Source of the DNA: Candidatus Moranbacteria bacterium GW2011_GWC2_40_12
Lineage (GTDB): Bacteria; Patescibacteriota; Minisyncoccia; Moranbacterales; UBA11712
DNA: 64,000 bases
Direction: 5' to 3'
Assembly (NCBI GenBank): GCA_000995965.1
Contig: LBYD01000001.1
Coordinates: 76,923-140,922 of the forward strand
The position numbers and the translations under genes were made by a program. This document shows, one piece after another, positions 2,768 through 53,373 of this stretch (positions within the stretch are counted from its first letter, which is position 1; each line of letters starts with the position of its first letter). The notes beneath the pieces were generated by a model. The model made no database searches. It saw only the letters and a list, made by a program, of their open reading frames with translations, and had not been told where the DNA came from.

Positions 2768-2804
2768 TTACGAATTACGAATCAATTACGAATATACGAA
2801 TTAT
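2768..2804. repeat. Four copies of TACGAAT (2769, 2776, 2787, 2795), read as ATTCGTA on the minus strand just upstream of the hldC start
   Basis: Direct reading: ttacgaattacgaatcaattacgaatatacgaatta fills the gmhB-hldC spacer. Confidence 0.9.
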
Positions 2805-3352
2805 TATTTTTGCACAATAAATTTGGCCGCGTCGAGCAGGTCTTCGGCGATATATTCTACGTCCGTCTTGTGCTTTTCATCCGAGCCGCCCTTACCCGTT
2901 TTGACGAGGATTGATCTGATCCCGAAATTTTTTCCGCACTTCACGTCGGCCCATTTGTCTCCGATCATCCAGGAATTCGCATTGTCAATTTCAAAATCTT
3001 TTTCGGCCTGTTCAAGCATTCCAGGAGCAGGCTTTCGGCAATTTGAAGTTTTCTTGTATTTTCCAATTCCTTCGGGATGGTAGGGGGAAAAGTATGTTTT
3101 CAGAATTTCTATTCCGTTTTTTTTGAGTTCTTTTTCAACGTGGTTGTTGAAATTCCAAAAATCTTTCTCCGCATAATAGCCCCGGCCGATGCCTGACTGG
3201 TTGGTGATGATAATGAAATGAAATCCGTTTTGTTCAAGAATTTTCAGGCCGGGAATCACGTTTTTTTCAAATTCAAAATCTTCTATTTTATAAACATAAT
3301 TATGGTCGACATTGATCACCCCGTCGCGGTCGAGGAAAATTATTTTTTTCAT
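2804..3352 (-). CDS. gmhB: D-glycero-D-manno-heptose 1,7-bisphosphate phosphatase (HAD superfamily)
   Basis: MKKIIFLDRDGVIN (DxD motif), ITNQSGIGRGY, CRKPAPGM and GDKWADV align along the full length with the GmhB pattern. Confidence 0.85.
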   Translation of the reverse strand: MKKIIFLDRDGVINVDHNYVYKIEDFEFEKNVIPGLKILEQNGFHFIIITNQSGIGRGYYAEKDFWNFNNHVEKELKKNGIEILKTYFSPYHPEGIGKYKKTSNCRKPAPGMLEQAEKDFEIDNANSWMIGDKWADVKCGKNFGIRSILVKTGKGGSDEKHKTDVEYIAEDLLDAAKFIVQK

Positions 3353-3397
3353 AAGTTATCTGAAATTCAATGCCGGGGGAACCCCAACATTGAAAGT

Positions 3398-4435
3398 TTA
3401 CTCTCCGATCCAATCCAGAAGTTCTTCTTTCGTCACCACTGAAGTCCCGAATTTGCGGATGGCGACCTGCGAAGCGGCAGTGGCAAGCTCCAATGCTTCG
3501 TGCATTTTCGCGCCGCCGGCATAGGAAGCGATGAGCAATGCGGCGACTGTGTCTCCGGCTCCGGCGATGTCGAATTGCTCTTCGACTTCCCGGGGCCGGA
3601 CGAAATAGGGTTCTTTTCGGGGTTCGAAATAAACCGTTCCTTTTTTTCCTCGGGTGATGAAAATATGGATCGGAATTTCTTTCTGAATTATGCTCGCGAT
3701 CTCGATGATTTCGCTGTCCGTGGTTCCGTCTTTGTCAAAACCACTCATTATTTTGGCCGTTTCAACTGATTCCACCCGGTTGGGTTTCAGGAAGAACAGT
3801 TCGGGATTTTTGATGAAGCTTTTGAATTTCACGAAGGTGTTTTGTTTGAGATCGGCGAAAATTGGAATATTTTTTTCGCTTGAAATGTCAATAATTTTCT
3901 TGAAAACTTTTTCCGTGAGAAATCCCTTTGCGTAATCATGGACGGAAATAACAGCCGGGTTCATTTCTTTGGCAAGGCTTTCGAGATATGCCGATATCTC
4001 ATTTTCTTTTTCCTTGTTCAAGGGGCGGGTATCCTCCATATCTACCCGGGCAACATGCTGGGTAGTGGTTTTTATCGCCTTCACCCTCAATTTGAGGGTT
4101 GTTTTGCGGTCCGCATCAAGGCTGAAATGGGTGATTATTCCGCATTTTTTGTATTCTTCTTCCATCACTTCTGTATATCTTATTCTTCCTTTTTCACCAA
4201 TGACACCAACGAGGTGCGGCGTGAGGCCAATCGCTGCCATGCAATTCGCCGCGTTTCCGGCGCCCCCCGGAAAAAATTGCTCATCCTCCACCGCGATCAC
4301 GGGAACAGGAGCTTCCTGGGAAAATCTTTCGACGGGGCCGGTGAGATAAGCGTCAAGCATCACGTCGCCGCAGGCCAATACTGGCGCGTCTTTAGCATTT
4401 TTCAGGATTTTTTTGGCTCTTTCTATTGTTAGCAT
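3398..4435 (-). CDS. hldA: D-beta-D-heptose 7-phosphate kinase (PfkB family, RfaE domain I type)
   Basis: PfkB signatures GGAGNAANC and DIAGAGDTVAALL. Length 345 aa. Located between gmhA and gmhB. Confidence 0.8.
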   Translation of the reverse strand: MLTIERAKKILKNAKDAPVLACGDVMLDAYLTGPVERFSQEAPVPVIAVEDEQFFPGGAGNAANCMAAIGLTPHLVGVIGEKGRIRYTEVMEEEYKKCGIITHFSLDADRKTTLKLRVKAIKTTTQHVARVDMEDTRPLNKEKENEISAYLESLAKEMNPAVISVHDYAKGFLTEKVFKKIIDISSEKNIPIFADLKQNTFVKFKSFIKNPELFFLKPNRVESVETAKIMSGFDKDGTTDSEIIEIASIIQKEIPIHIFITRGKKGTVYFEPRKEPYFVRPREVEEQFDIAGAGDTVAALLIASYAGGAKMHEALELATAASQVAIRKFGTSVVTKEELLDWIGE

Positions 4436-4447
4436 AAAAATGGAACG

Positions 4448-4480
4448 AAAATTCTAAACCCCAAGCTCAAAATTCTAAAC
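4448..4480. repeat. Direct repeat AAAATTCTAAAC x2 (4448-4459 and 4469-4480), 21 nt apart, in the gmhA-hldA spacer
   Basis: Exact 12-mers were read directly. A looser third copy, GAAATTCAAAA, lies near 4502. Confidence 0.85.
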
Positions 4481-4549
4481 AATTTCAAAATTAAAACGGA
4501 CGAAATTCAAAAGAGTATTGAAAACTTAGATTCTGGCATTTGGAGTTAT

Positions 4550-5125
4550 TTAGGATTTACTGAAGAAATATTTCTCAACTTCTTCGCAGATCCAGTGGAT
4601 TGCCATCAAGTGGATTTCCTGAATAAGGGGTATATCCCTTGACGGAATAATAATCGCGGCATCAGCCAAATTTTTCATTTTCCCCCCGTCATTTCCAAGG
4701 AGGGCTATGTTCTTGACCCCTTTCTTTTTAGCAGATTCCATGGCTTTTAGGCAATTGCCTGAATTTCCGCTGGTGCTGATAGAAAACAGGACATCATTTT
4801 CCCCTCCCAAACTTTCGACGAAGCGGAAAAATATGCCCTCGTAGCCGTAATCATTTCCGACGGCGGTCGTCGTTGCCAGATCGTACAAAGATATCGCGGG
4901 CAAAGCCGGCCGGTCAAAAGCAAAGCGTCCGACAAATTCTCCGACCATATGCGAGGCTTGTGTTGCGCTTCCTCCGTTCCCGCAGGTCATCAACTTTCCT
5001 CTGTTTTCTAGCGATTTGACAATAGTATTGCGCGCAGATTCGAGAGAATCCAGAAAAACTTTGTCTTTTGCCAGCAAATTTTGCAATTCGGCCGATTGCT
5101 TGAGCTTATTTTGCATTGATTTCAT
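4550..5125 (-). CDS. gmhA: Phosphoheptose (sedoheptulose-7-phosphate) isomerase, SIS domain
   Basis: CGNGGSATQASHMVGEFVGRF, VGNDYGYEGIF, ISTSGNSGN and QEIHLMAIH are colinear with the GmhA family. Confidence 0.88.
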   Translation of the reverse strand: MKSMQNKLKQSAELQNLLAKDKVFLDSLESARNTIVKSLENRGKLMTCGNGGSATQASHMVGEFVGRFAFDRPALPAISLYDLATTTAVGNDYGYEGIFFRFVESLGGENDVLFSISTSGNSGNCLKAMESAKKKGVKNIALLGNDGGKMKNLADAAIIIPSRDIPLIQEIHLMAIHWICEEVEKYFFSKS

Positions 5126-5139
5126 ATTTACTGTATAAT
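5111..5139 (+). promoter_or_regulatory. Sigma-70-like promoter TTGCAT-17-TATAAT upstream of the repeat-protein gene
   Basis: TTGCAT at 5111-5116, 17-nt spacer, TATAAT at 5134-5139. It lies about 37 nt before ATG 5176. Confidence 0.4.
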
Positions 5140-5175
5140 TATATCAGCCAAACATAGCTTTATTAAAACAAAAAA

Positions 5176-5925
5176 ATGGACAAAAGACAAATCAGCAGCG
5201 TGATTATTGTCGCGCTGGCGATCACTTTCATCGGAGCTTCAGTCGCGAGCTCGAAAATCAAGACGCTGAAGAAAATAAAGGCGGGAAGCATCACGAATCC
5301 CTATATTGCCGACGGTGCGGTGAATTCCGCCAAAATCCAGGATGGGACAGTTTCGAACGCCGATTATTCCGACAATTCCGTCACAACCGGGAAAATAGCG
5401 GATGGAGAGGTCAGCACGGACGATCTCGCGAATAATGCGGTAACAACAGGAAAAATTTCGGATGGGACGATCGCGGCAGGGGATTTGGCTGATAGCTCGG
5501 TGACTTCGGCAAAAATTTCGGACGGAGCTATTGTCAACACGGATATAAATTCCTCGGCGGCCATCGCCGGAACGAAAATTTCGCCAAATTTTGGAAGCCA
5601 GGATGTGACAACAACGGAAGATGTTAACGCGACAAACGGTGCCGGTAATTTCTTAAGAGTAACAGTCGGAGATACCCTTGCTGGAACAGGTGGCGGACTG
5701 TATGTCGATGACGAGCTTACCGCTAACGGACTTCAAATAAATCCTTCTGATGCGTCAACAGGTGACGCAGATTCAGCAACTACGCCAACCGATGAAACAT
5801 GCAATAGTAATAATTGGGGAACTTATGAATTTGTGGATGACACGGACAGTCCCGCTGGATGGCTGTGGATTTGCCAGCGATCCGGTCCCGATACCTATGC
5901 ATGGGTGAGAGTAAGCGGCCCTTGA
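5176..5925 (+). CDS. Membrane-anchored or secreted Ser/Thr/Asp-rich periodic repeat protein
   Basis: N-terminal hydrophobic segment ISSVIIVALAITFIGASVAS. About 5 alternating repeats follow the pattern xxAVxxxKIxDGxVxxxDLxxx (for example NSVTTGKIADGEVSTDDLANNAVTTGKISDGTIAAGDLADSSVTSAKISDGAIVNTDI). The C-terminal domain contains 2 Cys. Confidence 0.7.
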   Translation: MDKRQISSVIIVALAITFIGASVASSKIKTLKKIKAGSITNPYIADGAVNSAKIQDGTVSNADYSDNSVTTGKIADGEVSTDDLANNAVTTGKISDGTIAAGDLADSSVTSAKISDGAIVNTDINSSAAIAGTKISPNFGSQDVTTTEDVNATNGAGNFLRVTVGDTLAGTGGGLYVDDELTANGLQINPSDASTGDADSATTPTDETCNSNNWGTYEFVDDTDSPAGWLWICQRSGPDTYAWVRVSGP

Positions 5926-5965
5926 TTTGTTTGATTTAATTCGATTGGAATTGGCTTGGTTATTC

Positions 5966-6003
5966 AAAATAAAAAAGGCCCGATGCTTTATCGGGTCTTT
6001 TTT
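5966..6003. terminator. Bidirectional rho-independent terminator between converging genes
   Basis: Stem CCCGAT (5979-5984) / ATCGGG (5990-5995), loop GCTTT. An A-run lies upstream and a T-run downstream. Confidence 0.6.
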
Positions 6004-6005
6004 GA

Positions 6006-6938
6006 CTATTTGTTATTGTTTTTCTGAAACCACTCGTATGTTTTCCTAATTCCCGTTTTGAAGTCGGTTTTTGGCGTCCATCTAAAATTCTCTTTTATTT
6101 TCGCGTAGGAAAGGCAGCTGGTTTTTTGCTCGCCGATTTTGGCTGGTCCGTGAACTTCTTTGAATTTTTTTCCGAAATACTTGTTTATTTCTCGGAATAT
6201 GCCGTTTACACTCGTTTCTTTGCCGGTGCTGGCATTATATATTCCTACTTTGTCGAATTTTTCAAGCGCCTGCAGATTTGCCGAAGTTATATCGTCAATG
6301 AAAATGAAGTCCCTCGTTTGTTTTCCACTTCCGTTGATTACGGGTTGCTTTCCATTCATCATCATGTGGAGAAAAATCGCAATTACATTTACTTCTCCAT
6401 GGGGGTTTTGCCGCGGTCCATACACATTCGGATAGCGAAGAGCGGCAAATTTCAGCCCGTGGACCTTGTTGGCATAATGCAAGAATTTTTCAACGGAAAG
6501 CTTTCCAACTCCGTAGGGAGAGACGGGCCAAGGCTCGACGGTTTCCGGAGTGGGGAGGACGCGCGTGTCGCCGTAGAGGGCACCGCCGGTTGACGAAAAT
6601 ATGAATTTTTTGACTTTGTATCGGCAGGCGAGTTCAATAAGATTCATGCTTGCCAAAATATTATTATTCCCTTCGAAAAGGGGATCGGCGACGGATTTTC
6701 GAAGGTCTATTTGCGCCGCGAGATGGAAAATGACCTCCGGTTTTTCTTTTTTGACGGTAGCTTCAGTTTTTTTGTGATTGGTGAGGTCAGCTTTGAAAAA
6801 TTTTGCCTCGGGATTGATATTTTTCTCAAATCCGGTGGAAAGATTATCAATCACCAAAACCCGATGCTTCTTTTCAACAAGAGCATCGACCAGATGCGAA
6901 CCAATGAATCCCGCGCCTCCCGTGACCAAGATTTTCAT
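6006..6938 (-). CDS. NAD-dependent epimerase/dehydratase (extended SDR; GalE-like or HldD-like)
   Basis: MKILVTGGAGFIGSHLV Rossmann motif, DNLSTG, and the catalytic SPYGVGK (YxxxK). Length 310 aa. Substrate cannot be assigned by eye. Confidence 0.85.
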   Translation of the reverse strand: MKILVTGGAGFIGSHLVDALVEKKHRVLVIDNLSTGFEKNINPEAKFFKADLTNHKKTEATVKKEKPEVIFHLAAQIDLRKSVADPLFEGNNNILASMNLIELACRYKVKKFIFSSTGGALYGDTRVLPTPETVEPWPVSPYGVGKLSVEKFLHYANKVHGLKFAALRYPNVYGPRQNPHGEVNVIAIFLHMMMNGKQPVINGSGKQTRDFIFIDDITSANLQALEKFDKVGIYNASTGKETSVNGIFREINKYFGKKFKEVHGPAKIGEQKTSCLSYAKIKENFRWTPKTDFKTGIRKTYEWFQKNNNK

Positions 6939-6989
6939 AGTGTTTTTTCCAAAGCTAAGCTTTCGGATTTTCCTAAAGCTCAGCTTTTT

Positions 6990-8582: not shown

Positions 8583-8593
8583 TGTATTTCTTA

Positions 8594-8622
8594 TTGACAA
8601 AAGTATAGTAATGTTATAGAAT
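8594..8622 (+). promoter_or_regulatory. Near-consensus sigma-70 promoter TTGACA-17-TAGAAT
   Basis: TTGACA at 8594-8599, 17-nt spacer, TAGAAT at 8617-8622. A GGGAGG Shine-Dalgarno sequence and ATG 8677 follow. Confidence 0.55.
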
Positions 8623-8676
8623 ATAGTTTCAAAATTAACAAAAAAACAATAAATGAAAAGGGAGGCAGGCCGGTCA

Positions 8677-9111
8677 ATGAAAATAAAATATTCAATGAAA
8701 AGTTTGAAAAAGTTTCTGGCCAACGCTTTTTCCGGGGGAAATCCGGAAAAAATCCTCGAGGATGTCCATTGCGAGCTCACCCGGAGAAATTTCGCGGTTG
8801 AGAGGTATGAGGACGTTTCCGGGATGGGGATTCGGGGCAGTTTGGACATCTACCCATCGGTTCAGGTCAATGTCTATATTCCCTTCACTTCCGCGTGGGA
8901 GCTGCAGGCGCTTCTCTTCTTCGAGGAGGATGACCAGCTCGAATTGGTGAGCCAGGTCCCCGATTTCAAGGAAAAAATCCTTTTGAGGCGCTATTCCCTG
9001 CCAATTAATCCCCGGGAAATCGCCAGAGCTTTGAGCACGGACGCCCTGCTTCTTGGCGCATTGCTGGCAACTATTCTCAAGCGCCAGGAAATTGAGGCAC
9101 GGCATGAATAG
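8677..9111 (+). CDS. Hypothetical cytoplasmic protein (144 aa), visibly G+C-richer than its neighbours
   Basis: Consensus promoter, a GGGAGG Shine-Dalgarno sequence 11 nt upstream of ATG 8677, and a globular-looking sequence (…IYPSVQVNVYIPFTSAWELQALLFFEEDDQLELV…). No family was recognised. Confidence 0.55.
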   Translation: MKIKYSMKSLKKFLANAFSGGNPEKILEDVHCELTRRNFAVERYEDVSGMGIRGSLDIYPSVQVNVYIPFTSAWELQALLFFEEDDQLELVSQVPDFKEKILLRRYSLPINPREIARALSTDALLLGALLATILKRQEIEARHE

Positions 9112-21650: not shown

Positions 21651-21674
21651 ATCCTTACGTTCATATAATTCAAA

Positions 21675-25192: not shown

Positions 25193-25295
25193 GCAATATT
25201 ATACTATATCTTGTGGCATTTTCTTGCAAGAAAGGCAGCTTTGTTTACGATTTGCGAATTTTGAACTATGATTCAATTGTTCAAACCCGTGAATC

Positions 25296-29502: not shown

Positions 29503-29527
29503 TACGAACTACGAATTAATTACGAAT
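29503..29527. repeat. TACGAAC/TACGAAT x3 (29503, 29510, 29521), read as ATTCGTA on the minus strand 9 nt upstream of the pyrG ATG
   Basis: Direct reading: tacgaactacgaattaattacgaat. Confidence 0.9.
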
Positions 29528-29554
29528 GCGACAATGTCTATAAAAAAGAAATTA

Positions 29555-33508: not shown

Positions 33509-36091
33509 TTACGGCCTGGCTTGCAGGCTGTTGATTTTTTGGATTAAGTCCTGAATTTCGCTAAGAAGCACGGCAGGCGTTGTGTTCAATCTTTTGGCCG
33601 CTGCTATGCCAATTTTTAATTTTTCAAATCCGAGTATTGCAAGCAGTCTTATCTCAGATGGCTTTAGACGCTTGATCACTCCAGCGATTTCCGGTCTGAC
33701 GCCGTTCTTTTTCGGGTCTTTTTTTTCAAGCCTAAATTGAACAGCTCCAGAAAACTCGGGATCAAGGATTAAAGTATTGTCGTCTGCGAGCAACATAGGT
33801 TGCCACTTCTTGTTAATGCTCGGCGACCTTTCCGGTGGGACGCGAGGAATCGGCATTTCGGCTGCCGGAATAACCGGAGGCTCAATCGGGAAAATCGGCG
33901 TGCCGATCTCCGAAAAAAGCATCACAATCACTTGAGGCGGTTGGCCAAAAATAAACCTCCTTTCGCCGTCATTCCTTGTGTATGAGGTGCGAAGCGGCGG
34001 AACGCGCGGAACACGTATTTTGTCTTTCAGGATAACCGGAGGCTCAATCGGAAAAATCGGCGTGCCGATCTCCGAAAAAAGCATCTCGGTTATTCTTGGA
34101 GGATCACCGAAGACAAACCTTTTTTCTCCGATAATTTCCGTATCAGGAGATTTAGGCTTTTTGGATATGGCATTCTCCGAAACGACTTCCTTATCCTCAA
34201 AGGGTGGGTAATACCTTGGATAGCAAGCCGGCGGGCGCCGCGGCCTCGGACGATGATCCTGCGGATGCTCGCAGAGCGGAATTACAACATCCTCCACTTT
34301 TCCCGAACGCCAGTGTTTGGCGTTAAAAATTATTTCGAAATGTTGACGGTCAGGAAACGCGGGATAGTACGGATTTGAGCCCTTTTTCCTGCGATTTCCG
34401 TTAGCCGAACCCTCATCATAAAAGGATTTCAATCTTGTGACACGGGACGGATGCCGAAGTTTGCGCAGGGCTTTGGCTTCAATCTGCCGGATGCGTTCGC
34501 GCGTGACTTCGAAATCTTTATCATGCCCGACCTCCTCCAAAGTCATATCTTTTGCTTCCCCGATGCCGAAGCGCTTGCGAAGGACTTTTTCCTCGCGCGG
34601 CGTCAATGTGGTCAGCATCTTGCGGGTTTGGTCTGCCAGATTGAGACTGGCGACTGCCTCAAATGGAGTGGAAACTTTCTCATCTTTTATGAAATCGCCC
34701 AGAAAATCATTCTCATCTTCACCGACAGGAGTTTCGAAGGATATTGGTTCCTTCGCGATTTTGAGGACTTTCAGCACTTTCTCCAAAGGAAATTCCATCT
34801 TGTCGGCGATTTCTTCGGCAGTTGGCTCTCGCCCCATTTCCTGGACCAGATACCGCGAGGTCCGGATAAGCTTATTGATGGTTTCGATCATATGGACCGG
34901 TATGCGGATGGTGCGAGCTTGATCGGCGATGGCGCGGGTAATGGCCTGCCTGATCCACCAGGTGGCATATGTGCTGAATTTGTAGCCGCGCTCGTATTCG
35001 AACTTTTCCACGGCTTTCATGAGACCGACATTGCCTTCCTGGATGAGATCCAGGAATTGAAGCCCGCGGTTGGCGTATTTCTTGGCGATGCTCACCACCA
35101 GCCGCAGATTGGCTTCTACCATTTCCCGTTTGGCCTTGTGAGCTTTATACTCGCATTTTTCCAGTTTTTCCACAGTGGCCAGCAACTGGCCAGAAGGGAG
35201 ACCGATAATCTGTTCGTATCTTCGCAGTTCGTTGCGGGTTTTATTTTGCAGGTATTTCAGCTCTTCGAATCTCTCCGGTGCTAAGCCGGCCGGCAGCAGA
35301 ATTTCTGCTTCCTGTTTGGACTTCCGGACAATGTCCCTGAGCTTTGTTTCAGATATTTTGGCACAGGCGAACGCCGCATTTTTCTTGCGGATGAGATCGC
35401 GCGCCGCGGAGGCGATCACGCGCAAATCCTCGGCGATTGCCTGAAAATAAATCGGCTCGAGACGCAGTGCTTCGAAGCGATCAGCCAGACGCCGACGGGC
35501 CGCGACAATGGACCGCTGAATTTGATCAACTTCATCGCTGTCCGGCGGAAGGACTGCCAATCTTTCGCCCAGCAGGTTAATTTTTTGATATTCCGCCAAA
35601 AATCCGGAAATAATCCAAGAATTCCTGGATTTTCGATCTGCCGGATCCGTGTTCAGGTCTTCTTCGCCGAAGTCGTCGATTTTTTCTTCAGCCTTCGACA
35701 TTTTATAATTCGTTCCGTGTTTCAAGCCTTTGACGAAGTCGGCGACATTTCTCAATGAGTAAGGAATCTCAAAGAGGGTCGAAAAAAATTCTCTCTCGCC
35801 AGCTTCAATCCGTTTGGCAATCGCGACTTCCTGCTCGCGGGTAAGAAGAAGAGGAATTTCACACATATCTTTGAGATACAGGCGAACAGGATCGTCGAAT
35901 TTCATCGAAGCTTCTGTTTCAGCGTCTTTTTCTTGAAGTAGCGGACGTTCGTTAATCTCCCCTTCCTCGTTTGTTTCGTCGGCAAGATCCGATTCATAAG
36001 ATGATGAAAGCGTCCCGAAGTCTTCTACGGGTTCTCCGTTTGACAGTTGGTCAATCATAATATCCGTGACAGAATCGTCGTCGTAAGACAT
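33509..36091 (-). CDS. rpoD: Primary-type RNA polymerase sigma factor (sigma-70/RpoD) with a ~301-aa C-terminal extension
   Basis: Region 1.2 is [14 protein letters not shown]. Region 2 is [59 protein letters not shown]. Region 4.2 is TLEEVG…[20 protein letters not shown]. The canonical end …RLKSFYD is at codon ~559, and the ORF continues to 860 aa. GGAGG lies 9 nt upstream of the ATG. Confidence 0.9.
33870..34085 (-). repeat. Intragenic tandem duplication: two 54-bp cores (33870-33923 and 34032-34085), 53/54 identical and offset by 162 bp
   Basis: ATAACCGGAGGCTCAATCGG(G/A)AAAATCGGCGTGCCGATCTCCGAAAAAAGCATC was read twice. It encodes [18 protein letters not shown] in both copies. Confidence 0.92.
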
Positions 36092-36221
36092 TCGGGATCA
36101 CCTCCTTTCCCTTTCGGGATATTTTTTTGTCAAAGGGCAGTTGCCTGTTTAAAAAACAGAGCCCTCCTGCTCCTTTGTATAAACTAAAATATTATGCGTT
36201 TTTTGGCAAATTTACGGCTGA

Positions 36222-37679: not shown

Positions 37680-37701
37680 AAACTCGCGAATTTAGAACGA
37701 A

Positions 37702-39360
37702 TTAAAACGAATCAGAACGGATGTTTCTTGTGCTTACAATTATTGCCAGTCCAAACCAAAATATTCCCATAAAAAGTCCCGCGTTAAATAAATTCGGGAC
37801 GATCAAAGAAGTGATTCCTAAAACCGTGAAGACACTCATCGCTTTTTCGAAATCATCTTTCACTACTGGACAGCCGAAAAACCGGTTCATCGGACAAATC
37901 GGCGAGATGCGCCGGAAAGCATAAATAAAAAGGTAGCCAAAAACAGCTATAAACGCCATCAATCCCAAAATCCCGCTTCCCGCCCAAATCTGAAGAAAAA
38001 CGTTGCTTTCGTTGAGGCCGGCTCCCCGCTGGTCAACGCCTATTTTTTCGGTAATCGTTCCGTATCCTATGCCCAAGAGCGGCGATTTTTTGAGGATATT
38101 CCATGACTCTCGATAAATTTCGCTTCGAGTTCTCACGTTCGGGTCTTTTCGGAAAGTTTCGGCGACAATTTTTCCCCGCAATTTATAGAAATTTATTTCT
38201 TCCAGATTGATATGCCGGCAATTATATTTTGGAAGTTCGCCAATATCTTCAATTGAATCGGGAATATCCGCGCTGTTTTCGCAAGCAATCGTGATTTTCT
38301 GCTCGCTGGTGGCGGTTGAGCGCGCCCGGTCAAAAATATCGAATTTTGAAAGTTTGCCGAAATGAACCGCCAATAAGGATGCAATTATAATCGAAAATAT
38401 TATCGCCGATTCCCTCAAGAATCCTTTCCAGCCGCCGACATATTTGCTGACGGCGCCTGTCTTGCGCGACGGCGCTAGCGCGAGAAAATAAAAAGTTATG
38501 ACAACGGCCGCTCCGATCCAAGCTGAACGCGAAAGGGTCAATATGAGCAGCGTTATATCGAAAAAAATAAAAACATCCAAAAACAAAACAATGTATTGTC
38601 TCGAAATAAGCAGCATCCTCTTTGACCGGAGGAAATAAAATATCAACGCGAGAAAAACCGCCAGCGCGAAAACAAGATATATTCCCAGCCAGTCTGGTTC
38701 GGCAAATGTGGAATTTGGCCGTCCGAACATTATCTCGAAAGATTTCGCGCCCAATTTGTCGGAAAAAACCTGATAAAATCCGAATAATATTGTCGTCAGG
38801 AATGAGATCATCAAAAAAGCGGATGTTTTCGCGAGGTCTTCGCAGTTTCTCAAGAAATTGCGGACCAAAAAATATAAAGCGATAAAAGAAATCAAAATAA
38901 GATTATTTTTGAGGGAAATAGATTTGTTCGAAGCGCCTATCAGCGCCAAAAAACTGAGAGGAACCAATGTCAAAATCAGCCAATCGATCCAGTTTGGCTT
39001 CAAGAATTTGAAACCTATCCGTTTGGAGATAAAAAGGATTATCATTGCCAAAATCAATATTCCTGCCAAAAATTGATATGGCCGCAGTTGAAACGGAATA
39101 TAGTTTCCGGTCAGGATCACATTTTCAAGAGAAATGCTGCCCACGAAAAGAAAAAATATCCAGCGGGGGCGGTAGAGCGCGATTAGGAGAGCCACCAGAG
39201 ACAAAAAAACAAAGTCCCCTTTTCCGAGCGGCAATTTGTTTCCTGCCGAAAGGGCTGCGGCAACCAGGCTCAAGACAAAACCAAAAACCCAAACCCAGGC
39301 GAGTTCTCTTTTGAATATATTTTTTAAAATTTTTACTGTATTTTTCGTGTTAACCATCAT
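37702..39360 (-). CDS. O-antigen ligase/polymerase-like (Wzy_C family) polytopic membrane protein
   Basis: More than 10 helices. LTLSRSAWIGAAVV is the characteristic Wzy_C/WaaL loop motif. A large extracytoplasmic insert is present. Confidence 0.7.
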   Translation of the reverse strand: MMVNTKNTVKILKNIFKRELAWVWVFGFVLSLVAAALSAGNKLPLGKGDFVFLSLVALLIALYRPRWIFFLFVGSISLENVILTGNYIPFQLRPYQFLAGILILAMIILFISKRIGFKFLKPNWIDWLILTLVPLSFLALIGASNKSISLKNNLILISFIALYFLVRNFLRNCEDLAKTSAFLMISFLTTILFGFYQVFSDKLGAKSFEIMFGRPNSTFAEPDWLGIYLVFALAVFLALIFYFLRSKRMLLISRQYIVLFLDVFIFFDITLLILTLSRSAWIGAAVVITFYFLALAPSRKTGAVSKYVGGWKGFLRESAIIFSIIIASLLAVHFGKLSKFDIFDRARSTATSEQKITIACENSADIPDSIEDIGELPKYNCRHINLEEINFYKLRGKIVAETFRKDPNVRTRSEIYRESWNILKKSPLLGIGYGTITEKIGVDQRGAGLNESNVFLQIWAGSGILGLMAFIAVFGYLFIYAFRRISPICPMNRFFGCPVVKDDFEKAMSVFTVLGITSLIVPNLFNAGLFMGIFWFGLAIIVSTRNIRSDSF

Positions 39361-43928: not shown

Positions 43929-43944
43929 GCGAAGCGAATACCAA

Positions 43945-43978
43945 ATTTTTGATTTTTGATTTTTGATTTTTGATTTTT
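43945..43978 (+). repeat. Heptanucleotide tandem repeat (GATTTTT) x4 plus a partial copy
   Basis: aTTTTT GATTTTT GATTTTT GATTTTT GATTTTT gc was read directly, between stop 43928 and ATG 43991. Confidence 0.92.
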
Positions 43979-43990
43979 GCATTTATTATA

Positions 43991-44353: not shown

Positions 44354-45486
44354 AACGAATTCTACTCCTCACCCGCCCGATTTGCCCGCCGTGGGACGAG
44401 GGCTCCAAAGATTTTGCCTACACTCTGGCGAAGCACGCCCGTGATTTTGAAGTGCACCTTTTGACTTTTGGGAAAGTAGCGGATCTTCCAGAAAGTGTGG
44501 TCCAACATTCGATTTATACGTCACCGAAGTGGGATTTTGGGCAAAAAGTGCGGGCGTACCTGTTTCTTGTCAGGGAATTTCTGATCAAGGGCGGAAAGGA
44601 CTATGATATTCTCCATTCTTTTTTCACGCCGACAAAACTGAATGTTTTCGCGCTGAAACTATGCCTTCGGAATAAAAAATTGAAAACCATCCAGACTCTG
44701 GCCACGCTTCGAGACGATATTTATAGCGACGAGCAAATAAAGAAAATTATCCACGCCGATCTTATCATCGCCTACTCCGACTACGCCAAAGAAAAGCTGG
44801 AAAAAATGGGATTCGGAAATGTGAAGCGAATCTATCCGGGAATTGACATCAATTTATTTTCCCCCGCTCCGAAAAATCCGGAACTGATGAAAAAATATGA
44901 GACAAGTGAAAGCGATTTTGTGATAAACTACACGGGAGAATACTTGCGGCTCGGGGATATGGACGACATCGCTCCCGTTTTTTCAGAGTTGTCGAAAGAA
45001 AACAAAAATTTCAAACTGCATCTGGCTGTCCGGGTGAAGAATCAGGCTGACGCGGAAAAAAAGGAAGAGGTGAAAAAAGAATTCAAAAAAGAAGGCGTGC
45101 TGGACAGGGTGGCTTTTCTGGATGACGGCGGATACACGATGGAGCAAATATATAATCTCTGCGACATTTCAATTTTTCCCGCCCGGACGATGGCCGGAAA
45201 ATTTGACATTCCTCTGGTTGTTCCGGAGGCGATGGCATGCGGGAAACCGGTGATCACCAGCAATATCCCAAGGCTCCGATATTTTTTGAATGATGAAAAC
45301 AGCCTTTTGATTGAACCGGGCGACCGAAGAGCGCTCAAAGACAATATCTTGTACCTTCATTCAAGTCCTGAAGCGCGCCGCGAGCTGGGCGACAAGGGAA
45401 TGGAATTTGCAAGGGAAAATTTTGACATAAAAAAAATAGTGAAAGAATACGAAGAAGTTTATGAAAATGTAATTAGTAATTCGTAA
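44350..45486 (+). CDS. GT4-type glycosyltransferase
   Basis: C-terminal half …FDIPLVVPEAMACGKPVITSN…. The last five codons (VISNS*) are supplied by the dispersed motif. Confidence 0.75.
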   Translation: MKRILLLTRPICPPWDEGSKDFAYTLAKHARDFEVHLLTFGKVADLPESVVQHSIYTSPKWDFGQKVRAYLFLVREFLIKGGKDYDILHSFFTPTKLNVFALKLCLRNKKLKTIQTLATLRDDIYSDEQIKKIIHADLIIAYSDYAKEKLEKMGFGNVKRIYPGIDINLFSPAPKNPELMKKYETSESDFVINYTGEYLRLGDMDDIAPVFSELSKENKNFKLHLAVRVKNQADAEKKEEVKKEFKKEGVLDRVAFLDDGGYTMEQIYNLCDISIFPARTMAGKFDIPLVVPEAMACGKPVITSNIPRLRYFLNDENSLLIEPGDRRALKDNILYLHSSPEARRELGDKGMEFARENFDIKKIVKEYEEVYENVISNS

Positions 45487-45490
45487 TTTG
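45469..45490 (+). repeat. Dispersed motif copy GTAATTAGTAATTCGTAATTTG
   Basis: The 17-mer AATTAGTAATTCGTAAT at 45471-45487 is identical to 53357-53373. Confidence 0.9.
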
Positions 45491-45544
45491 AAATGCGGAT
45501 ATTTGCGTTGTCTTGGTCACAGACTTATAATTGTTAATTGCTTT

Positions 45545-47070: not shown

Positions 47071-47088
47071 TCTAGGCGAAAGATGACA

Positions 47089-47322
47089 TTAAAATAATTG
47101 TGTCTGTTTGTGGGCTGCACGCGTCAGACTCTTGTGCAGATCCGGATGATATTCAAGCCTTCGGGCTAATTTAGCCGCTGCTTTCAGCTTGCAGATGCTT
47201 GGATGGTCGACGGCTTCCTTGATTTGCCTGAGAATGGCAAGTCTTGCCATATTATCCTCATGTTGTATGGCACCCTCGATAAACCGATTGATATTCTCAC
47301 TCAGACATTCAACAATTTTCAC
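47089..47322 (-). CDS. Small hypothetical helical protein (77 aa), GTG start
   Basis: An AGGAGGG Shine-Dalgarno sequence lies 7 nt upstream of GTG 47322. A terminator hairpin lies downstream. Confidence 0.55.
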   Translation of the reverse strand: MKIVECLSENINRFIEGAIQHEDNMARLAILRQIKEAVDHPSICKLKAAAKLARRLEYHPDLHKSLTRAAHKQTQLF

Positions 47323-47393
47323 TTGATGTCCCTCCTGAATTATTTGATGTTATCTTTGATTAACAAGAATAAAATAATTTATTTTATTTGTCA

Positions 47394-47972
47394 ATGCCAA
47401 AATTCATCACCTTCTCCGGACTTGACGGCTCCGGGAAATCGACCCAAATTGAACTTTTGAAGAAATATCTTGAAGAACAAGGCAAGACTTTTTTCTATTT
47501 CCACGCGGTGGAGTTTTCAATCGGCAAAGTAACCTGTCGAGGTTTCACCTCGACAAAAAATAAAAGTGTGATAAAGGCCAATTGGCTGCAAATTCAGTTG
47601 CGCAAAATCGCGCTTTTGATTGATATGTTTAGGTTTTTTAGGTTGCTTAAGATACTCAGGGTTGATTATATCATTTCCGACCGGTATTTTTTTGACAGCG
47701 TAGTGAATATTCTGTTTTTAGAAAAGCGTAGACATCCGACGTCTAAGAATTTATGCGCGGAAAAATATATTCCCAAACCCGATTTCGCTTTCTATATCGA
47801 GGTTAAACCGGAAGCGATCATGCAGCGCGAGCGAAAACCGGATCAGGGAATTGAATATTTGGTAGCGAAAGAGAAAATATTTGCTGATAAAATCAAAGAC
47901 TGGAATTTGATTGTAATCAACGGGGAGAAAGATAAAGAAGAAATCCATCAGCAAGTAATTAGTAATTTGTAA
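47394..47972 (+). CDS. P-loop nucleoside monophosphate kinase, thymidylate-kinase-like
   Basis: FITFSGLDGSGKSTQIELLKKYL (Tmk-type P-loop) and DRYFFDS. The region between them is divergent, and the canonical REPGG motif was not seen. Confidence 0.6.
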   Translation: MPKFITFSGLDGSGKSTQIELLKKYLEEQGKTFFYFHAVEFSIGKVTCRGFTSTKNKSVIKANWLQIQLRKIALLIDMFRFFRLLKILRVDYIISDRYFFDSVVNILFLEKRRHPTSKNLCAEKYIPKPDFAFYIEVKPEAIMQRERKPDQGIEYLVAKEKIFADKIKDWNLIVINGEKDKEEIHQQVISNL

Positions 47973-48029
47973 TTGGTAATTAGGATTTTATTTTTTTATC
48001 CCAATTACTAATTGCTAGTTACAAATTAC
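47955..48029 (+). repeat. Long imperfect inverted repeat (about 32 pairing positions, 11-nt U-rich loop) filling the tmk-like/wzx spacer
   Basis: Hand pairing of 47955-47986 with 47998-48029 gives 26 Watson-Crick pairs, 3 G-U pairs and 3 mismatches. The left arm is a copy of the dispersed motif (1 mismatch). Confidence 0.7.
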
Positions 48030-48033
48030 AAAA

Positions 48034-49530: not shown

Positions 49531-49581
49531 AAAACACAAAAAACTATCCGAAGAGGAGTTGCTATATCAAAACATTTTTGA

Positions 49582-50415
49582 TTATTTCTGCGCCAATCTC
49601 ACTGTGTTCCAAAGCAACATCGCAATCGTGATCGGGCCGACGCCGCCGGGGACGGGGGTGATGAAGGAGGCTTTTTTGGAAACTGACGCGAAATCCACAT
49701 CACCAAATATTCTTTTACCTTTGCGGTTCACTCCGACGTCAATCACGACAACCCCCTTTTGCACCATATCAGCCTTGATCAAATTCATTTTTCCAACAGC
49801 CACGACCAGAATGTCGGCCTTCTGGGTATAGCTTTTGAGGTTTTTAGTATGCCGATGGCAGACTGTGACCGTCGCACCTCGATTCAAAAGAAACTGGGCC
49901 ATCGGTTTTCCCACGATATTCGAGCGGCCGACAACAACCGCGTTTTTGCCTTCGATTTTTATTTTATTTTCCTTCAGCAATTTGATTATTCCCAGAGGTG
50001 TAGCGGGCGCGACAATGGAATATTCTTCGCCGTTCTGGACGAACCTTCCAAAATTTAGCGGGTGAAGGCAATCAGCGTCTTTTTGGGGATCAATCGCTTC
50101 AATAATCTTATTCTTATCCATATGCTTCGGCAGAGGCAGTTGGACCATTATCGCCGAAATATTCCCGTTTGCATTTAGACTAGAAATGATTTCAAGAATT
50201 TCTCTCTCCGAAGTTTTTTCAGGAAAAGTGAATACTCGTGACCCGATTCCCGCTTTCGCGCAAAATATTTTTTTTCGGTCCACGTATATCTTTGAAGCCG
50301 GATCATTGCCGACCAGGATCATCGCCAAAACAGGCTTCTTTTTCCGGCGAGAAACCTGTTTCTTCAGGTCAAGAATAATTTTTCCGGACAATTTTTTTCC
50401 GTCGAGGAGCTGCAT
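49582..50415 (-). CDS. folD: Bifunctional methylenetetrahydrofolate dehydrogenase/cyclohydrolase
   Basis: LAMILVGNDPASKIYV, VQLPLP, VVGRSNIVGKP and TPVPGGVGPITIAML. Confidence 0.92.
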   Translation of the reverse strand: MQLLDGKKLSGKIILDLKKQVSRRKKKPVLAMILVGNDPASKIYVDRKKIFCAKAGIGSRVFTFPEKTSEREILEIISSLNANGNISAIMVQLPLPKHMDKNKIIEAIDPQKDADCLHPLNFGRFVQNGEEYSIVAPATPLGIIKLLKENKIKIEGKNAVVVGRSNIVGKPMAQFLLNRGATVTVCHRHTKNLKSYTQKADILVVAVGKMNLIKADMVQKGVVVIDVGVNRKGKRIFGDVDFASVSKKASFITPVPGGVGPITIAMLLWNTVRLAQK

Positions 50416-50473
50416 TTCTTCGGAATGATTTCTTATGCTAGAATTGTAATAGAGAATTGAGCGAAAGGCAACT

Positions 50474-51271
50474 ATGATACGCTTTGCCGCGATTACTCCT
50501 CATCCGCCAATTATTATTCCGACTATCGGTCGGAGTAATTTGAATTTGAGCAGAAAAACCGTGAATGCGATGAAGGCGGCTGGAGAAAAATTCCGTTCCG
50601 TAAAAGCGAATACGATTGTTCTGATTTCACCCCATGGTCCGGTGCAATACGATAAATTCATTATCAACTATTCTCCCACTCTTCGCGGAGATTTGTCCTC
50701 TTTCGGCGATCATCGCCGGTTTATTTTCGAAAATGACCGCGAACTCATTGACGAGATTATGGAAAGTAGCCGGATGGCCCGATTGCCGATTGGCCTAGCG
50801 AGGGAACTCGAACTTGATCATGGAGCCCTGGTGCCTCTTTATTATTTGATGAATGAAAAGGATTTGGGCTATAATCCGCGGCTGATCCATATGTCATATT
50901 CAATGCTGCCTTTGGATTATCATTTCCGATTTGGAGAAATTTTGGGGAGTGTCTTGCAAGGCAGCCCAAAACTGATCTCTTTCATTGCGAGTGGAGATTT
51001 GTCGCACCGGGTTTCGCTTGATGCTCCGGCCGGATACTCCCCCCAAGGAAGAGTGTTTGACAGGATGCTCATTGATTTAATCCAGCAAAAAAACACCAAA
51101 GGCGTTCTGAATATCGACCCATATCTCATTGAAGAATCCGGAGAATGCGGTTTGCGTTCGATTATCATGCTCTTGGGTGCTCTCAAGAACACGAGATGGG
51201 AAGTGAAGAATTTGAGTTATGAAGCTCCTTTCGGAGTGGGATACATGGTGGCGAGCCTTAATATCAAATAA
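50474..51271 (+). CDS. LigB-family (class III extradiol dioxygenase subunit B-like) protein
   Basis: AAITPHPPIIIP, LISPHGP, ELDHGALVPL and SGDLSHR. Confidence 0.6.
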   Translation: MIRFAAITPHPPIIIPTIGRSNLNLSRKTVNAMKAAGEKFRSVKANTIVLISPHGPVQYDKFIINYSPTLRGDLSSFGDHRRFIFENDRELIDEIMESSRMARLPIGLARELELDHGALVPLYYLMNEKDLGYNPRLIHMSYSMLPLDYHFRFGEILGSVLQGSPKLISFIASGDLSHRVSLDAPAGYSPQGRVFDRMLIDLIQQKNTKGVLNIDPYLIEESGECGLRSIIMLLGALKNTRWEVKNLSYEAPFGVGYMVASLNIK

Positions 51272-51355
51272 TTAGATAATCAAAAAACGCAAAGCGAGGA
51301 ACGAAAATCATTAGTATCGCTTCGCAATTAATCACTATTCTTTCCCCGAAAAAAA

Positions 51356-53290
51356 ATGAAAGGCAATTATATAATAAAAATCGCTCCGCTCATTCGCTTG
51401 CCAATCGCGAGAACGCAGGTTTTCTCGTATTTATTCCGGAAGCCGATAAAAAGCGGGAGCCTGGTGGAAATACCTTTCTATAATCGCGTCATTTCAGGGA
51501 TCGCATTGGACAGCCGAGAGGATTTTCCCCGAAAAGGAAATTTTGAACTGAAGAATGTGAAAAACATCGTGGAAGAAGAAATGCTTACCGAAAAACAAAT
51601 CAAATTTGCAAAAAAAATGGCGGATTTCTATCTTTCTCCGCTTGGGATAATTTTGAAGATGATGGTTCCGAAAATCTCGGAAATGAAGAAAAAAAAACGA
51701 ATGAATGCGGCGAAGATTGAGATAATAAAAAAAAGCGGTCGGACGAAGGAAATAACAGGCGCAAAAAGCAAAGAAGTCGTCTTGGTCGGTCCCGAAGATG
51801 AAAGAGATAAGGATATATTTTCAGCCATGAAGCAGGCAATTGCAGAAAATAAGCAATTATTGTATCTTATTTCTGAGATATTTCCTGCAGCTGCTTTTTT
51901 TGAAAATCTCAAAAAACATTTTCAAACAGAAGAAATTGCCCTGATTCACGGATCGGTCTCAAAAGGAAATTTCTTTGACGTTTGGGAAAAAATCAAAAAT
52001 GGAGAAATCAAGATAGTCGTCGCTACGAAAACGGGCCTATTTCTCCCCTTTTGCGGGCTTGGGACGATCGCGGTCGAGGAATCCGGTGAAATTTCACACA
52101 AGCAATGGGACATGAACCCGAGATACAACGCGGCTCGAGCCGCCAAGTTGCTGGCCGATATCCATGGTGCGAAAATAATATATTCAAATTCCGTTCCAAC
52201 TGTTGAAATGTGGAAAAGAAAAAAAGAGAAGTTTGTTCAAGCATCGGATTTGGGTGAAGATAATTCAAACCGGAGCGAAATCAGAATATCGAACATCTTC
52301 AGAGAAAAAAAGAGCGCTGACTTTCCGATTGCAAAGGAGCTTTACAAGTCGCTCTCAAGCATAATAGACAGAAAAGAAAAGGCGCTGCTGGTCGTGAACC
52401 GAAAAGGATTTTCAAGTTATTCGATTTGCCGAAGCTGCAAAACAGTTTTGCGCTGTCCAGAATGCAACCGGGCGCTGGTCTATTTTGAAGAAAAAGAAAA
52501 ATACAGATGCCTTCATTGCAGCCATAAAATGGATCTTTTTTGCGCCTGTCCTTCTTGCGGGGCATGCCAATTTTCACATCAGGGAATAGGTATCCAGCTG
52601 GTCGAGAAAAAAATCAGAAGGCTTTTCCCGTCAGCGCGAATACTGCGTCTTGAAGCTGACGCTTCGAAATCGAAAAAGAAAAGCGAAAAAATGTTGAAAG
52701 ATTTGTCGGATGAAAATTTCGACATTCTCATCGGCACGCAAGTCGCCTTGAAAATTGGCAGACTTTGCAAATTCAACCTAGTTGCTTTTCCCAGCTTTGA
52801 CGATTTGGGAAGCATTCCCGATTTCAACTCGAGAGAAATGGTCTTTGCGATTCTTGGCCAAGCTGAGGGCCTTCTGAAAAAAAGCGGCATTTTGATCGTT
52901 CAAACGGTTTATCCCGACAGTTTTTTGCTGGGCTCGTTCAAAAACCGAAATTGGGCTGAGTTTTTCGAAAAAGAGCTGAAGGAAAGAAAAAAAACCATGA
53001 ATCCCCCGTTTTCAAGGATAATCAAAATTATTTTTAGAGATAAAAACAAAATAAAAGCGAAAAATGAGGCTAACAAGGTATATGGCTTGCTCGAAGCGCT
53101 TGCGGATAGTAATATTGATATAGGCGAACCATACGATCCCTTTGCGGCCAAAAGAAGAGGATACTATCATAAAAATATACTGATCAAAGCCGTGCCAGGA
53201 ACCGAAATGCGCAAATTACCTTTTTTTTCCGTGATTAGCGGCCTGCGAAAGGGCTGGGTGGTTGATGTTGATCCGATAAGCACGCTTTAG
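51356..53290 (+). CDS. priA: Primosomal protein N' (PriA) homolog with degenerate helicase motifs
   Basis: Colinear with PriA. The 4x Cys-pair zinc region is intact: CRSC…CPEC…CLHC…CPSC. Walker A GxGKT is GPEDERDK, DEEH is VEESGE, and motif VI GRAGR is GLLKK. Synteny is priA-def-fmt. Confidence 0.8.
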   Translation: MKGNYIIKIAPLIRLPIARTQVFSYLFRKPIKSGSLVEIPFYNRVISGIALDSREDFPRKGNFELKNVKNIVEEEMLTEKQIKFAKKMADFYLSPLGIILKMMVPKISEMKKKKRMNAAKIEIIKKSGRTKEITGAKSKEVVLVGPEDERDKDIFSAMKQAIAENKQLLYLISEIFPAAAFFENLKKHFQTEEIALIHGSVSKGNFFDVWEKIKNGEIKIVVATKTGLFLPFCGLGTIAVEESGEISHKQWDMNPRYNAARAAKLLADIHGAKIIYSNSVPTVEMWKRKKEKFVQASDLGEDNSNRSEIRISNIFREKKSADFPIAKELYKSLSSIIDRKEKALLVVNRKGFSSYSICRSCKTVLRCPECNRALVYFEEKEKYRCLHCSHKMDLFCACPSCGACQFSHQGIGIQLVEKKIRRLFPSARILRLEADASKSKKKSEKMLKDLSDENFDILIGTQVALKIGRLCKFNLVAFPSFDDLGSIPDFNSREMVFAILGQAEGLLKKSGILIVQTVYPDSFLLGSFKNRNWAEFFEKELKERKKTMNPPFSRIIKIIFRDKNKIKAKNEANKVYGLLEALADSNIDIGEPYDPFAAKRRGYYHKNILIKAVPGTEMRKLPFFSVISGLRKGWVVDVDPISTL

Positions 53291-53356
53291 CTGTACGAAT
53301 CTCTCTCGAATCCGAAAAAATGAAGTTCGAAATTCGTATAAGCATGCAACGTCGCG

Positions 53357-53373
53357 AATTAGTAATTCGTAAT
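53357..53373 (+). repeat. Dispersed motif copy AATTAGTAATTCGTAAT, 3 nt upstream of the def ATG
   Basis: Identical 17-mer to 45471-45487. Confidence 0.9.

Follow-up and report, generated by a model that had tools for sequence, protein, structure and literature searches.

Arrays of TTnGTA hexamers at gene junctions of Moranbacteria-type genomes: a candidate family of short dispersed foldback repeats

Among the closest described systems to the repeats considered here are the REP (repetitive extragenic palindromic) sequences and the REPINs, doublets of REP sequences that form hairpins and are mobilised by RAYT transposases (PMC3116915; PMC3733652). We analysed a stretch of 64,000 nucleotides (the window) from Candidatus Moranbacteria bacterium GW2011_GWC2_40_12 (contig LBYD01000001.1, positions 76,923 to 140,922), in which copies of a motif with the core TTCGTA lie at the boundaries of several genes, together with loci from relatives and metagenome contigs. 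These loci, designated by L-numbers, represent only fragments of each genome, and their genes are crude open reading frame (ORF) calls. We consider with moderate confidence that the motifs of the window are members, mostly eroded, of a clade-specific, REPIN- or MITE-like family of short dispersed foldback repeats, based on the architecture and distribution of the family, on junctions that are filled in some genomes and empty in others, and on an insertion in a ribosomal RNA (rRNA) gene. As far as the literature was searched, a family of short inverted-repeat elements at gene junctions of Moranbacteria-type members of the Candidate Phyla Radiation (CPR) has not been described before: no paper mentions TTCGTAATTCGTA, and the top-ranked results link no Patescibacteria or Parcubacteria with REP or MITE elements.

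Like REP sequences and REPINs, the element is a short, conserved, multi-copy extragenic sequence that is spread regardless of its neighbours. It mostly forms inverted doublets with a less conserved spacer, next to singlets, is capable of forming a hairpin when single-stranded or transcribed, and carries GTAG at its outer end (TTCGTA followed by G in 76 of 98 aligned arms). In contrast, a REP unit is an imperfect palindrome headed by GT[AG]G, whereas the arm described here consists of four direct hexamer repeats with GTAG only at the 3' outer end, and the host belongs to a CPR lineage, for which no such repeats are reported in the literature searched. Miniature inverted-repeat transposable elements (MITEs) and foldback elements, such as Correia, RUP, ERIC and the Drosophila foldback elements with terminal repeats made of sub-repeats, are similar in having terminal inverted repeats around a short interior, filled and empty orthologous sites, insertions at gene junctions that affect the neighbouring ORFs, and subfamilies. 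They differ in that here no target-site duplication is seen, the arms are only 31 nt long and solo arms are common. No autonomous parent element with the same ends was seen in the genome fragments sampled. Because it has neither the unit structure of REP sequences nor the target duplication of MITEs, we assign the element to neither class.

Cyanobacterial STRR sequences are heptamer repeats, and mycobacterial MIRUs lie in intercistronic spacers and overlap the neighbouring stop and start codons. The likeness lies in the 7-nt periodic intergenic sequences, represented here by GTAATTN and (ATTTTTG)n in the window and by the heptads of its relatives, but the canonical arms have irregular spacings of 8, 11 and 7 nt and form inverted doublets, and both taxon and sequence are different. 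CPR (Patescibacteria) genomes are regarded as extremely streamlined and repeat-poor, and to our knowledge almost nothing is known about their gene-expression signals. In these supposedly repeat-poor genomes, the present data point to a widespread and sharply defined family that sits in the exact stop-to-start spacers of housekeeping genes, splits formerly overlapping genes, adds residues to proteins and also appears as an insertion in 23S rRNA. If mobile, it would be a new kind of miniature element, with some enzyme that must recognise TTnGTA arrays; if maintained by the host, it would be the first candidate in this large group of uncultured bacteria for a signal of gene boundaries or of expression.

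The arm consists of four TTnGTA hexamers arranged as W-TTCGTA-N1-2-TTCGTA-N4-5-TTCGTA-N1-TTCGTA-G, with unit spacings of 8, 11 and 7 nt and a length of 31 nt. The pyrG loci of Patescibacteria (1.40 Mb) contain 26 arrays of at least three units, whereas locally shuffled sequence gives 0-2. A 24-base gapped pattern of the arm identified at least 118 metagenome contigs with perfect arms in the Joint Genome Institute (JGI) collection and was absent from 2.9 million viral contigs; given the lack of viral matches, a phage origin was rejected. In an alignment of about 98 arms, A or T precedes the units, with C never present at the scored position before unit 1, and the base directly after the last unit is G in 76 and A in 17 arms, a purine in 93 of 98; no other flanking position is conserved. 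That the hexamers do not vary in this set follows from its construction. In partner arms, for which perfection was not required, 85-88% of the units are still exact (88% on the start side, 85% on the stop side). The commonest variant units alter position 3 only (TTAGTA, TTTGTA and TTGGTA), and the same units occur in the 17-mer and the GTAATTN heptads of the window discussed below.

The usual unit is a divergent doublet, composed of a reverse arm, a gap of 0-126 nt and a forward arm. Under strict matching, 56 of 128 arms have an inverted partner, always on their 5' side and never on the 3' side, which leaves 72 without a partner; with relaxed detection, 40 of the 67 transitions between neighbouring arms are of the (-,+) type and most gaps measure 0-126 nt. 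The same arrangement of a reverse array, a short gap and a forward array that ends a few nt before an ATG is present in the more distant Moranbacteria L043, L076, L079 and L084.

The outer ends of the arms adjoin gene boundaries. For 52 of 69 arms, an ATG that opens a real ORF lies 4-10 nt past the arm, most often at 5 nt, and among the other arms the reverse-complement stop codon of the neighbouring gene is found 1-8 nt away in 29 of 36. The median distance to a gene boundary is 7 nt on the 3' side of the arm vs 73 nt on the 5' side (78 of 95 arms; p = 1.6e-10). These distances give, as the usual order of parts, a stop codon, the reverse arm, the gap, the forward arm and a start codon. The end of an arm in L152 is separated by 5 nt from the 5' end of the 16S rRNA. 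The original prediction, made on the window alone, had placed the motif just upstream of start codons; this position bias is real, but it is broader than proposed, as the 3' ends of the arms face a start codon, a stop codon or the 16S 5' end.

With respect to gene content and orientation the arms appear indiscriminate. By the crude ORF calls, arm-bearing spacers are co-directional, divergent and convergent in 73, 15 and 12% of cases, compared with 73, 13 and 13% of all spacers. The genes at the arms are diverse housekeeping genes, including those for the ribosomal proteins L6, L16, L17, L24, L36, S10 and S17, for GroES, GAPDH, TPI, Adk, SSB, TopA, DnaE, UvrA, MreB, RuvC and PyrG, and for response-regulator receivers. 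Clustering of the genes that neighbour arms yielded housekeeping families only, and no candidate partner or cognate regulator. Bracketing of single genes, as expected for a panhandle or for processing of cistrons, was rejected, since a stop-side arm at the gene's own end is present in none of the 58 genes that have an arm on the start side. An ORF resembling the 23S intervening-sequence protein was likewise dismissed as a partner, being near arms in only two independent loci.

As the original prediction noted, the motif lies where a Shine-Dalgarno (SD) sequence would be expected, a position that could imply a similar role. Comparison with the 16S tail does not bear this out, and pairing with the anti-SD sequence was rejected: TTCGTA arrays show no complementarity to the canonical 16S tail (L039), and the same holds for the tail deduced from the rpoD leader of the window (GGAAAGGAGGTGATCC) and for the tail of L169, which lacks CCUCC. 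In addition, the G-rich bases after the arms are only 0-3 nt from the ATG in many cases, which counts against an SD role. The 16S rRNA of the arm-bearing contig L169 (12350-12679) ends in GGAUCAAUUAUUUU, so that the CCUCC anti-SD is replaced; the organism may lack SD-dependent initiation altogether.

Filled and empty states of the same junctions can be compared in the relatives of the window. The spacer between priA and def measures 4-17 nt in five syntenic relatives (L205-L209, with Def proteins 70-82% identical), vs 86 nt in the window. The glycosyltransferase family 4 (GT4) gene and rtcB overlap (ATGA) in L206 and L208 and are otherwise 19-37 nt apart in the relatives, vs 58 nt in the window, and the GT4 protein of L206 ends in YENL, with the final L and stop where the window protein has the tail VISNS. 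By the gene calls, tmk and wzx overlap in L208 and L209. No arm of at least three units is present in any of the L205-L209 loci. As the junctions of the relatives are empty, we regard the three sites of a 17-mer, AATTAGTAATTCGTAAT, in the window as lineage-specific insertions of one short repeat within 8 kb.

At the pyrG junction, three units are present in the window and a complete four-unit arm in L006 and L011. The junction of L009 is rearranged, with five TTCGTA-like units at irregular spacing, and L005 and L007 have inverted arrangements upstream of pyrG; no arm is found at the pyrG junction of L008, L010 and L014. Between tmk and wzx, other lineages carry other heptads, and some junctions are therefore permissive hot spots, which weakens the recurrence of arms at pyrG and GT4 as proof of function. 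Strain-level slippage was rejected, as the arms of near-identical contigs (L001-L004, L085 and L086) show no differences.

Several observations are repeat-like in character. Near-identical doublets of ~70 nt, including the spacers and an AACGTT loop, precede the genes for a response regulator, L36 and S10 in different contigs, and the arms within one contig are often identical (L144, L166, L167 and L204). In L094, a complete doublet (4475-4585) lies inside the 23S rRNA gene (2183-5990, minus strand), in the loop of an apical helix at Rfam LSU position about 1218, and extends this helix as a near-perfect hairpin of ~100 nt (-67.9 kcal/mol, z = -11.4). The 23S rRNA genes of CPR bacteria carry short non-intron insertions at the classical sites of RNase III intervening sequences (PMC11270868), and the L094 doublet resembles these in extending an apical helix as a long stem-loop at such a site. 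In contrast to these insertions, the TTCGTA family is mostly intergenic. Intervening sequences of 23S rRNA, at helix 25/45 sites, are cleaved by RNase III, and the L094 insertion might be cleaved likewise. A position within 23S rRNA makes no sense for a regulator site or a promoter, but it does for an inserted repeat that forms a hairpin.

The folding of the doublets could also indicate an element selected at the RNA level, that is, an intercistronic or leader hairpin that would serve RNase III-type processing, stabilise the mRNA or juxtapose stop and start codons for re-initiation. Such a hairpin would fit the exact span of the doublets from stop to start, their strong folds (z = -11.4 for the 23S insertion, -6.2 for tmk-wzx and -3.2 for priA-def), the arm that ends 5 nt before the mature 16S 5' end, and the location of the 23S insertion at a type of site known for cleavage of intervening sequences by RNase III (PMC11270868). 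That the arms are transcribed is moreover implied by the canonical -10 boxes that immediately precede some of them. We nevertheless judge this explanation to be quite improbable. Partner arms are no more alike, and no more complementary, than arms of unrelated contigs (p = 0.09), variant units are not compensated in the partner arm, and start-side and stop-side arms share one spectrum of variants, in which position 3 is free and there is no bias towards wobble. In view of this lack of excess partner similarity, compensation and wobble bias, it is the hexamer sequence itself that is kept, and not base pairing; pairing alone leaves the constancy of the hexamers across lineages unexplained. Furthermore, 72 of 128 arms are partnerless under strict matching, a solo arm is unstructured, and doublets also occur in divergent spacers, where both arms cannot share one transcript. 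A known RNA family was rejected, as an Rfam scan of 20 loci matched no family at the arms and a scan of the window returned tRNAs only, with no RNA family at the motifs.

Tandem short repeats are recognised by the omega repressor (heptads), by MetJ (8-bp met boxes) and by OmpR, PhoB and WalR (hexamer-N5-hexamer sites). In such operators, units of 6-7 bp are spaced at 7-8 or 11 bp, in direct and inverted orientation, near gene starts, and the arms resemble them in this respect. The arrays might be a host cis-regulatory or architectural site kept by selection, as operators of a clade-specific DNA-binding protein, for which a small binder of tandem short repeats of the ribbon-helix-helix or response-regulator type, or a roadblock factor at gene boundaries, would be a candidate. 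This would agree with hexamers that are invariant while the spacers drift, also at apparently orthologous junctions, with spacings of 7-8 and 10-11 bp like those of known tandem-repeat operators, and with the recurrence of arms at the same genes across lineages (pyrG, GT4, dnaE, L24 and L36). The shared variant spectrum of both arms, without wobble bias, similarly points to recognition of double-stranded DNA rather than pairing.

However, unlike known operators, the sites are not conserved at orthologous promoters and are found also at stop codons and inside rRNA. The same junctions have no arms in close syntenic relatives (L205-L209; L008, L010 and L014), one doublet is inside a 23S rRNA gene, and arms are as frequent as background in convergent spacers and within operons of ribosomal proteins. 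Gaps between arms range from 0 to 126 nt, the downstream genes share no function, and no cognate regulator gene is seen next to the arms. Operators kept by selection are for these reasons unlikely in our view. A broader version, which we hold to be a minority possibility, is that the arms are recognition arrays for a clade-specific gene-boundary factor and are maintained by the host, either as outward leaderless start signals or as boundary, roadblock or processing signals at the starts and ends of genes and rRNAs. Under this proposal the hexamers would be perfect while their surroundings drift because host selection maintains the arms.

Genes in the window mostly lack an SD sequence, and their upstream regions are A-rich. 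TATAAT is located exactly 5 nt before the ATG of several genes (25198-25203, 21664-21669 and others) and GGAGG-type sites are rare; the TATAAT-to-ATG spacing suggests that leaderless mRNAs are common. An arm could be a portable promoter for leaderless or very short-leader transcripts, recruiting RNA polymerase so that transcription starts a few nt past the last TTCGTA. The modal distance of 5 nt from arm to ATG equals that from TATAAT to ATG at the apparently leaderless genes of the window, the distance to the 16S rRNA is likewise 5 nt, the base at the presumed +1 is a purine in 93 of 98 arms, and between some arms and a preceding terminator-like hairpin there is no other promoter. Bacteroidetes-type promoters have the layout TTTG/TAnnTTTG, which TTCG-N19-TAwTTCG loosely resembles. 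Against a promoter stands that no -35 or -10 element is conserved outside the arm, and that the best alignment within it (TTCGTA-N17-TAWTTC) lacks the T at -7. Arms on the stop side are conserved equally well and, as promoters, would drive antisense transcription into the gene ends, and arms are present in convergent spacers, ribosomal-protein operons and 23S rRNA, in a distribution equal to background. Canonical TATAAT boxes immediately upstream of arms in L079, L096 and L177, and a separate TTGCGT-N17-TATAAT downstream of the heptads at the rtcB gene of the window, also speak against it. We therefore consider a promoter very improbable. Of the three roles put forward in the original prediction (promoter element, regulator binding site or small selfish repeat), the selfish repeat fits best; the promoter and regulator roles lack conserved flanking promoter elements and orthologous conservation in close relatives.

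In the foldback-repeat reading, copies would have been inserted into the very short spacers between neighbouring genes, and also into permissive spots such as the apical 23S loop, and the outer ends of the arms would as a result adjoin a stop or start codon. Insertion into spacers of about 5-20 nt would be the reason for this close contact. The elements would behave as non-autonomous repeats, indifferent to gene function and spacer type. In the window, overlapping or adjoining gene pairs are pushed apart and upstream proteins gain short tails (VISNS and VISNL); a transcribed doublet could fold back on itself and bring the stop and start codons together at the base of the hairpin. The hexamers would be recognised by a putative sequence-specific protein that copies or maintains the elements. 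The foldback-repeat reading and the other readings above are not mutually exclusive: a repeat, once inserted, can take on the role of a hairpin or bring a promoter with it, which may be so for the insertion upstream of rtcB.

Several points weigh against a family of foldback repeats. No target-site duplication was found when filled and empty sites were compared or at the flanks of doublets, which show only continued inverted symmetry (C...G, GC...GC). Whereas REP units are palindromic, the arms are built of direct repeats. The hexamer cores are perfect while the spacers differ wholly at apparently orthologous sites (dnaE, L24, L36 and pyrG), and purifying selection on a host binding site would likewise give perfect cores and drifting spacers. 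Similarly, recurrence at pyrG, GT4, dnaE, L24 and L36 could mean function and not permissive hot spots. Finally, a phmmer search of the ORFs (~2.3 Mb of loci and genome fragments), with IS608 TnpA and E. coli RayT sequences as queries, identified no transposase or other gene cognate to the arms. It gave one match, an IS200/IS605-type TnpA in L191 (9410-9860) with an in-frame stop, GC-rich hairpin flanks and no TTCGTA arms. In these fragments the arms thus show no association with RAYT/IS200, the sole TnpA being unrelated and not flanked by arms.

Within the window, TACGAA/ATTCGTA is the most intergenic-enriched 6/7-mer that is not composed of A and T only, with 9 of 20 copies in the 6.9% non-coding part (p ~3e-6), clustered at ~4-5 loci. 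Exact copies of the 17-mer AATTAGTAATTCGTAAT indeed occupy 45471-45487 and 53357-53373, as had been reported, and the copy at 47957-47973 differs from it by one mismatch. In total the 17-mer has 8 matches in the window at up to 3 mismatches, vs 0.46 expected, and none of 100 shuffles reaches 8. A random distribution or an AT-rich background, the explanation that the original prediction had named as its refutation, is excluded by shuffles of the window and of the pyrG loci and by the intergenic enrichment.

The only canonical four-unit arm of the window, TTCGTAtaTTCGTAattgaTTCGTAaTTCGTA, is located at 2769-2800 on the minus strand, with spacings of 8, 11 and 7 nt, and fits the 24-base pattern used for the metagenome scan. 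It occupies the 42-nt spacer between the stop codon of a HAD-phosphatase gene (2804-2806) and the ATG (2761) of a cytidylyltransferase-like gene (2276-2761), 7 nt beyond the arm, in agreement with the four ATTCGTA copies previously placed before this gene under the name hldC (2769-2801, minus strand). The arm is solo, with no inverted partner, and unstructured as RNA (z = -0.4). At pyrG, a three-unit arm, TTCGTAattaaTTCGTAgTTCGTA (29503-29526, minus strand), ends 8 nt before the ATG (29494), and its first unit has decayed (ttgtcgca, 29527-29534). The three units of the proposed pyrG cluster are thus present as TTCGTA, but read as ATTCGTA heptamers the first is degraded to GTTCGTA. An eroded arm, ATTCGTtttaATTCGTtctaaATTCGCgagttt (37680-37712, minus strand), precedes the ATG (37679) of a GT4 glycosyltransferase gene and contains the stop codon of a Wzy-like gene (37702-37704), which confirms the looser ATTCGT/ATTCGT/ATTCGC series noted there. 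In L076 and L079, orthologues of this GT4 gene (MKIGIDI...) are likewise preceded by arms or doublets, at distances of 4 and 10 nt from the ATG.

An eroded divergent doublet (53291-53376, plus strand) fills the priA-def spacer. Its reverse units are TACGAA (53294-53299) and TCGAAT (53306-53311), and its forward units are TTCGAA (53326-53331), TTCGTA (53333-53338) and TTAGTA-a-TTCGTA (53359-53371), the last within the 17-mer. The ATG of def (53377) follows 5 nt beyond the last unit, a start that agrees with def homologues of 146-155 aa; the fold of the spacer has a z of -3.2.

The two remaining copies consist of heptads in reversed arm order, which makes their membership less certain and counts against the family assignment; we regard them as derivatives of the family. 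Between GT4 and rtcB, a lineage-specific insertion (45469-45544, plus strand) begins with the heptads GTAATTA GTAATTC GTAATTT (45469-45488), which encode the GT4 tail VISNS and stop. Downstream of them lies the promoter-like TTGCGT (45503-45508)-N17-TATAAT (45526-45531), and the insertion closes with AATTGTTAATTGC, which weakly repeats the heptads in inverted form and is followed by the ATG of rtcB (45545). The 17-mer had been described as directly preceding rtcB, but the N-terminus of RtcB aligns with five relatives from ATG 45545, 58 nt downstream of the 17-mer; in L206, L208 and L209 only a few residues separate the start from the conserved I(E/K)SL...HKK motif. As rtcB starts at this ATG, the heptads are the 3' end of the upstream GT4 gene and do not adjoin a start codon.

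Between tmk and wzx, a 30-nt inverted repeat of heptads (47954-48032, plus strand) is arranged in forward-then-reverse order, opposite to the canonical doublets. Its left arm (AGTAATT AGTAATT TGTAATT GGTAATT) holds the tmk stop codon (47970-47972) and encodes the tail VISNL and stop, so that both C-terminal tails attributed to the motif were correctly identified. The right arm (AATTACT AATTGCT AGTTACA AATTACA) extends almost to the ATG of wzx (48034), and the element folds at -27.7 kcal/mol (z = -6.2). The motif had been stated to lie always on the coding strand of the downstream gene; this does not hold, because the arm adjoining the wzx ATG (48003-48032) is in reverse complement and the priA-def spacer opens with reverse copies (TACGAAT, 53294-53300).

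Reading frames are open through the inserted repeats into def (53320-53376) and rtcB (45488-45544), and gene callers therefore overextend these genes, giving 157 or 165 aa for Def vs 146 aa in relatives and 465-502 aa for RtcB. Such repeats are a practical source of wrong start-codon calls, in the window at rtcB and def.

Other short periodic or palindromic sequences were noted in the window and its relatives. A perfect 24-nt palindrome, AATTACGTAACTAGTTACGTAATT, is present at 59805-59828, at the end of a NUDIX gene between convergent genes, but the proposed kinship to the motif was rejected: it has no TTnGTA unit, folds weakly (z = -1.9) and is probably unrelated. Within the coding region of the sigma-70 gene, TTCGTAtcTTCGCAgTTCGTT (35213-35233, plus strand) has three units at spacings of 8 and 7 in antisense orientation and may be chance or an intragenic relic. 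Arrays with a 7-nt period are found just upstream of start codons elsewhere, namely (ATTTTTG)5.6 in the window (43945-43984) and, between tmk and wzx of two relatives, arrays that resemble CATTTTG and GATTTTG (L205, about 2880-2986; L207, about 3345-3412). Genomes of this kind may generally have heptad repeats where genes adjoin.

The window has a G+C content of ~43% and a non-coding share of ~7%. Its pyrG is 83-91% identical to pyrG in metagenome-assembled genomes of Candidatus Moranbacteria/Moraniibacteriota (Parcubacteria group, Patescibacteria/CPR), and its sequence is found unchanged within a 178-kb JGI metagenome contig and in contigs from several other samples. The sigma-70 gene (33509-36111, minus strand) is unusually long, with 860 aa and a 136-nt tandem duplication inside (33833-34130). 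Over ~15 nt its rpoD leader (36092-36111), GGAAAGGAGGTGATCCCGA, is complementary to the 3' tail of canonical 16S rRNA, and it is by far the strongest ribosome-binding site of the window. Two tRNA-Gln copies are present, at 56716-56794 and 57093-57177; the upstream copy is degenerate (92% identical over 66 nt, 30.9 bits in Rfam) and lies 377 nt upstream of the intact gene. The tRNA-Thr gene (62756-62828) is bracketed by a 29-nt inverted repeat that is 83% complementary (62702-62730 and 62864-62892).

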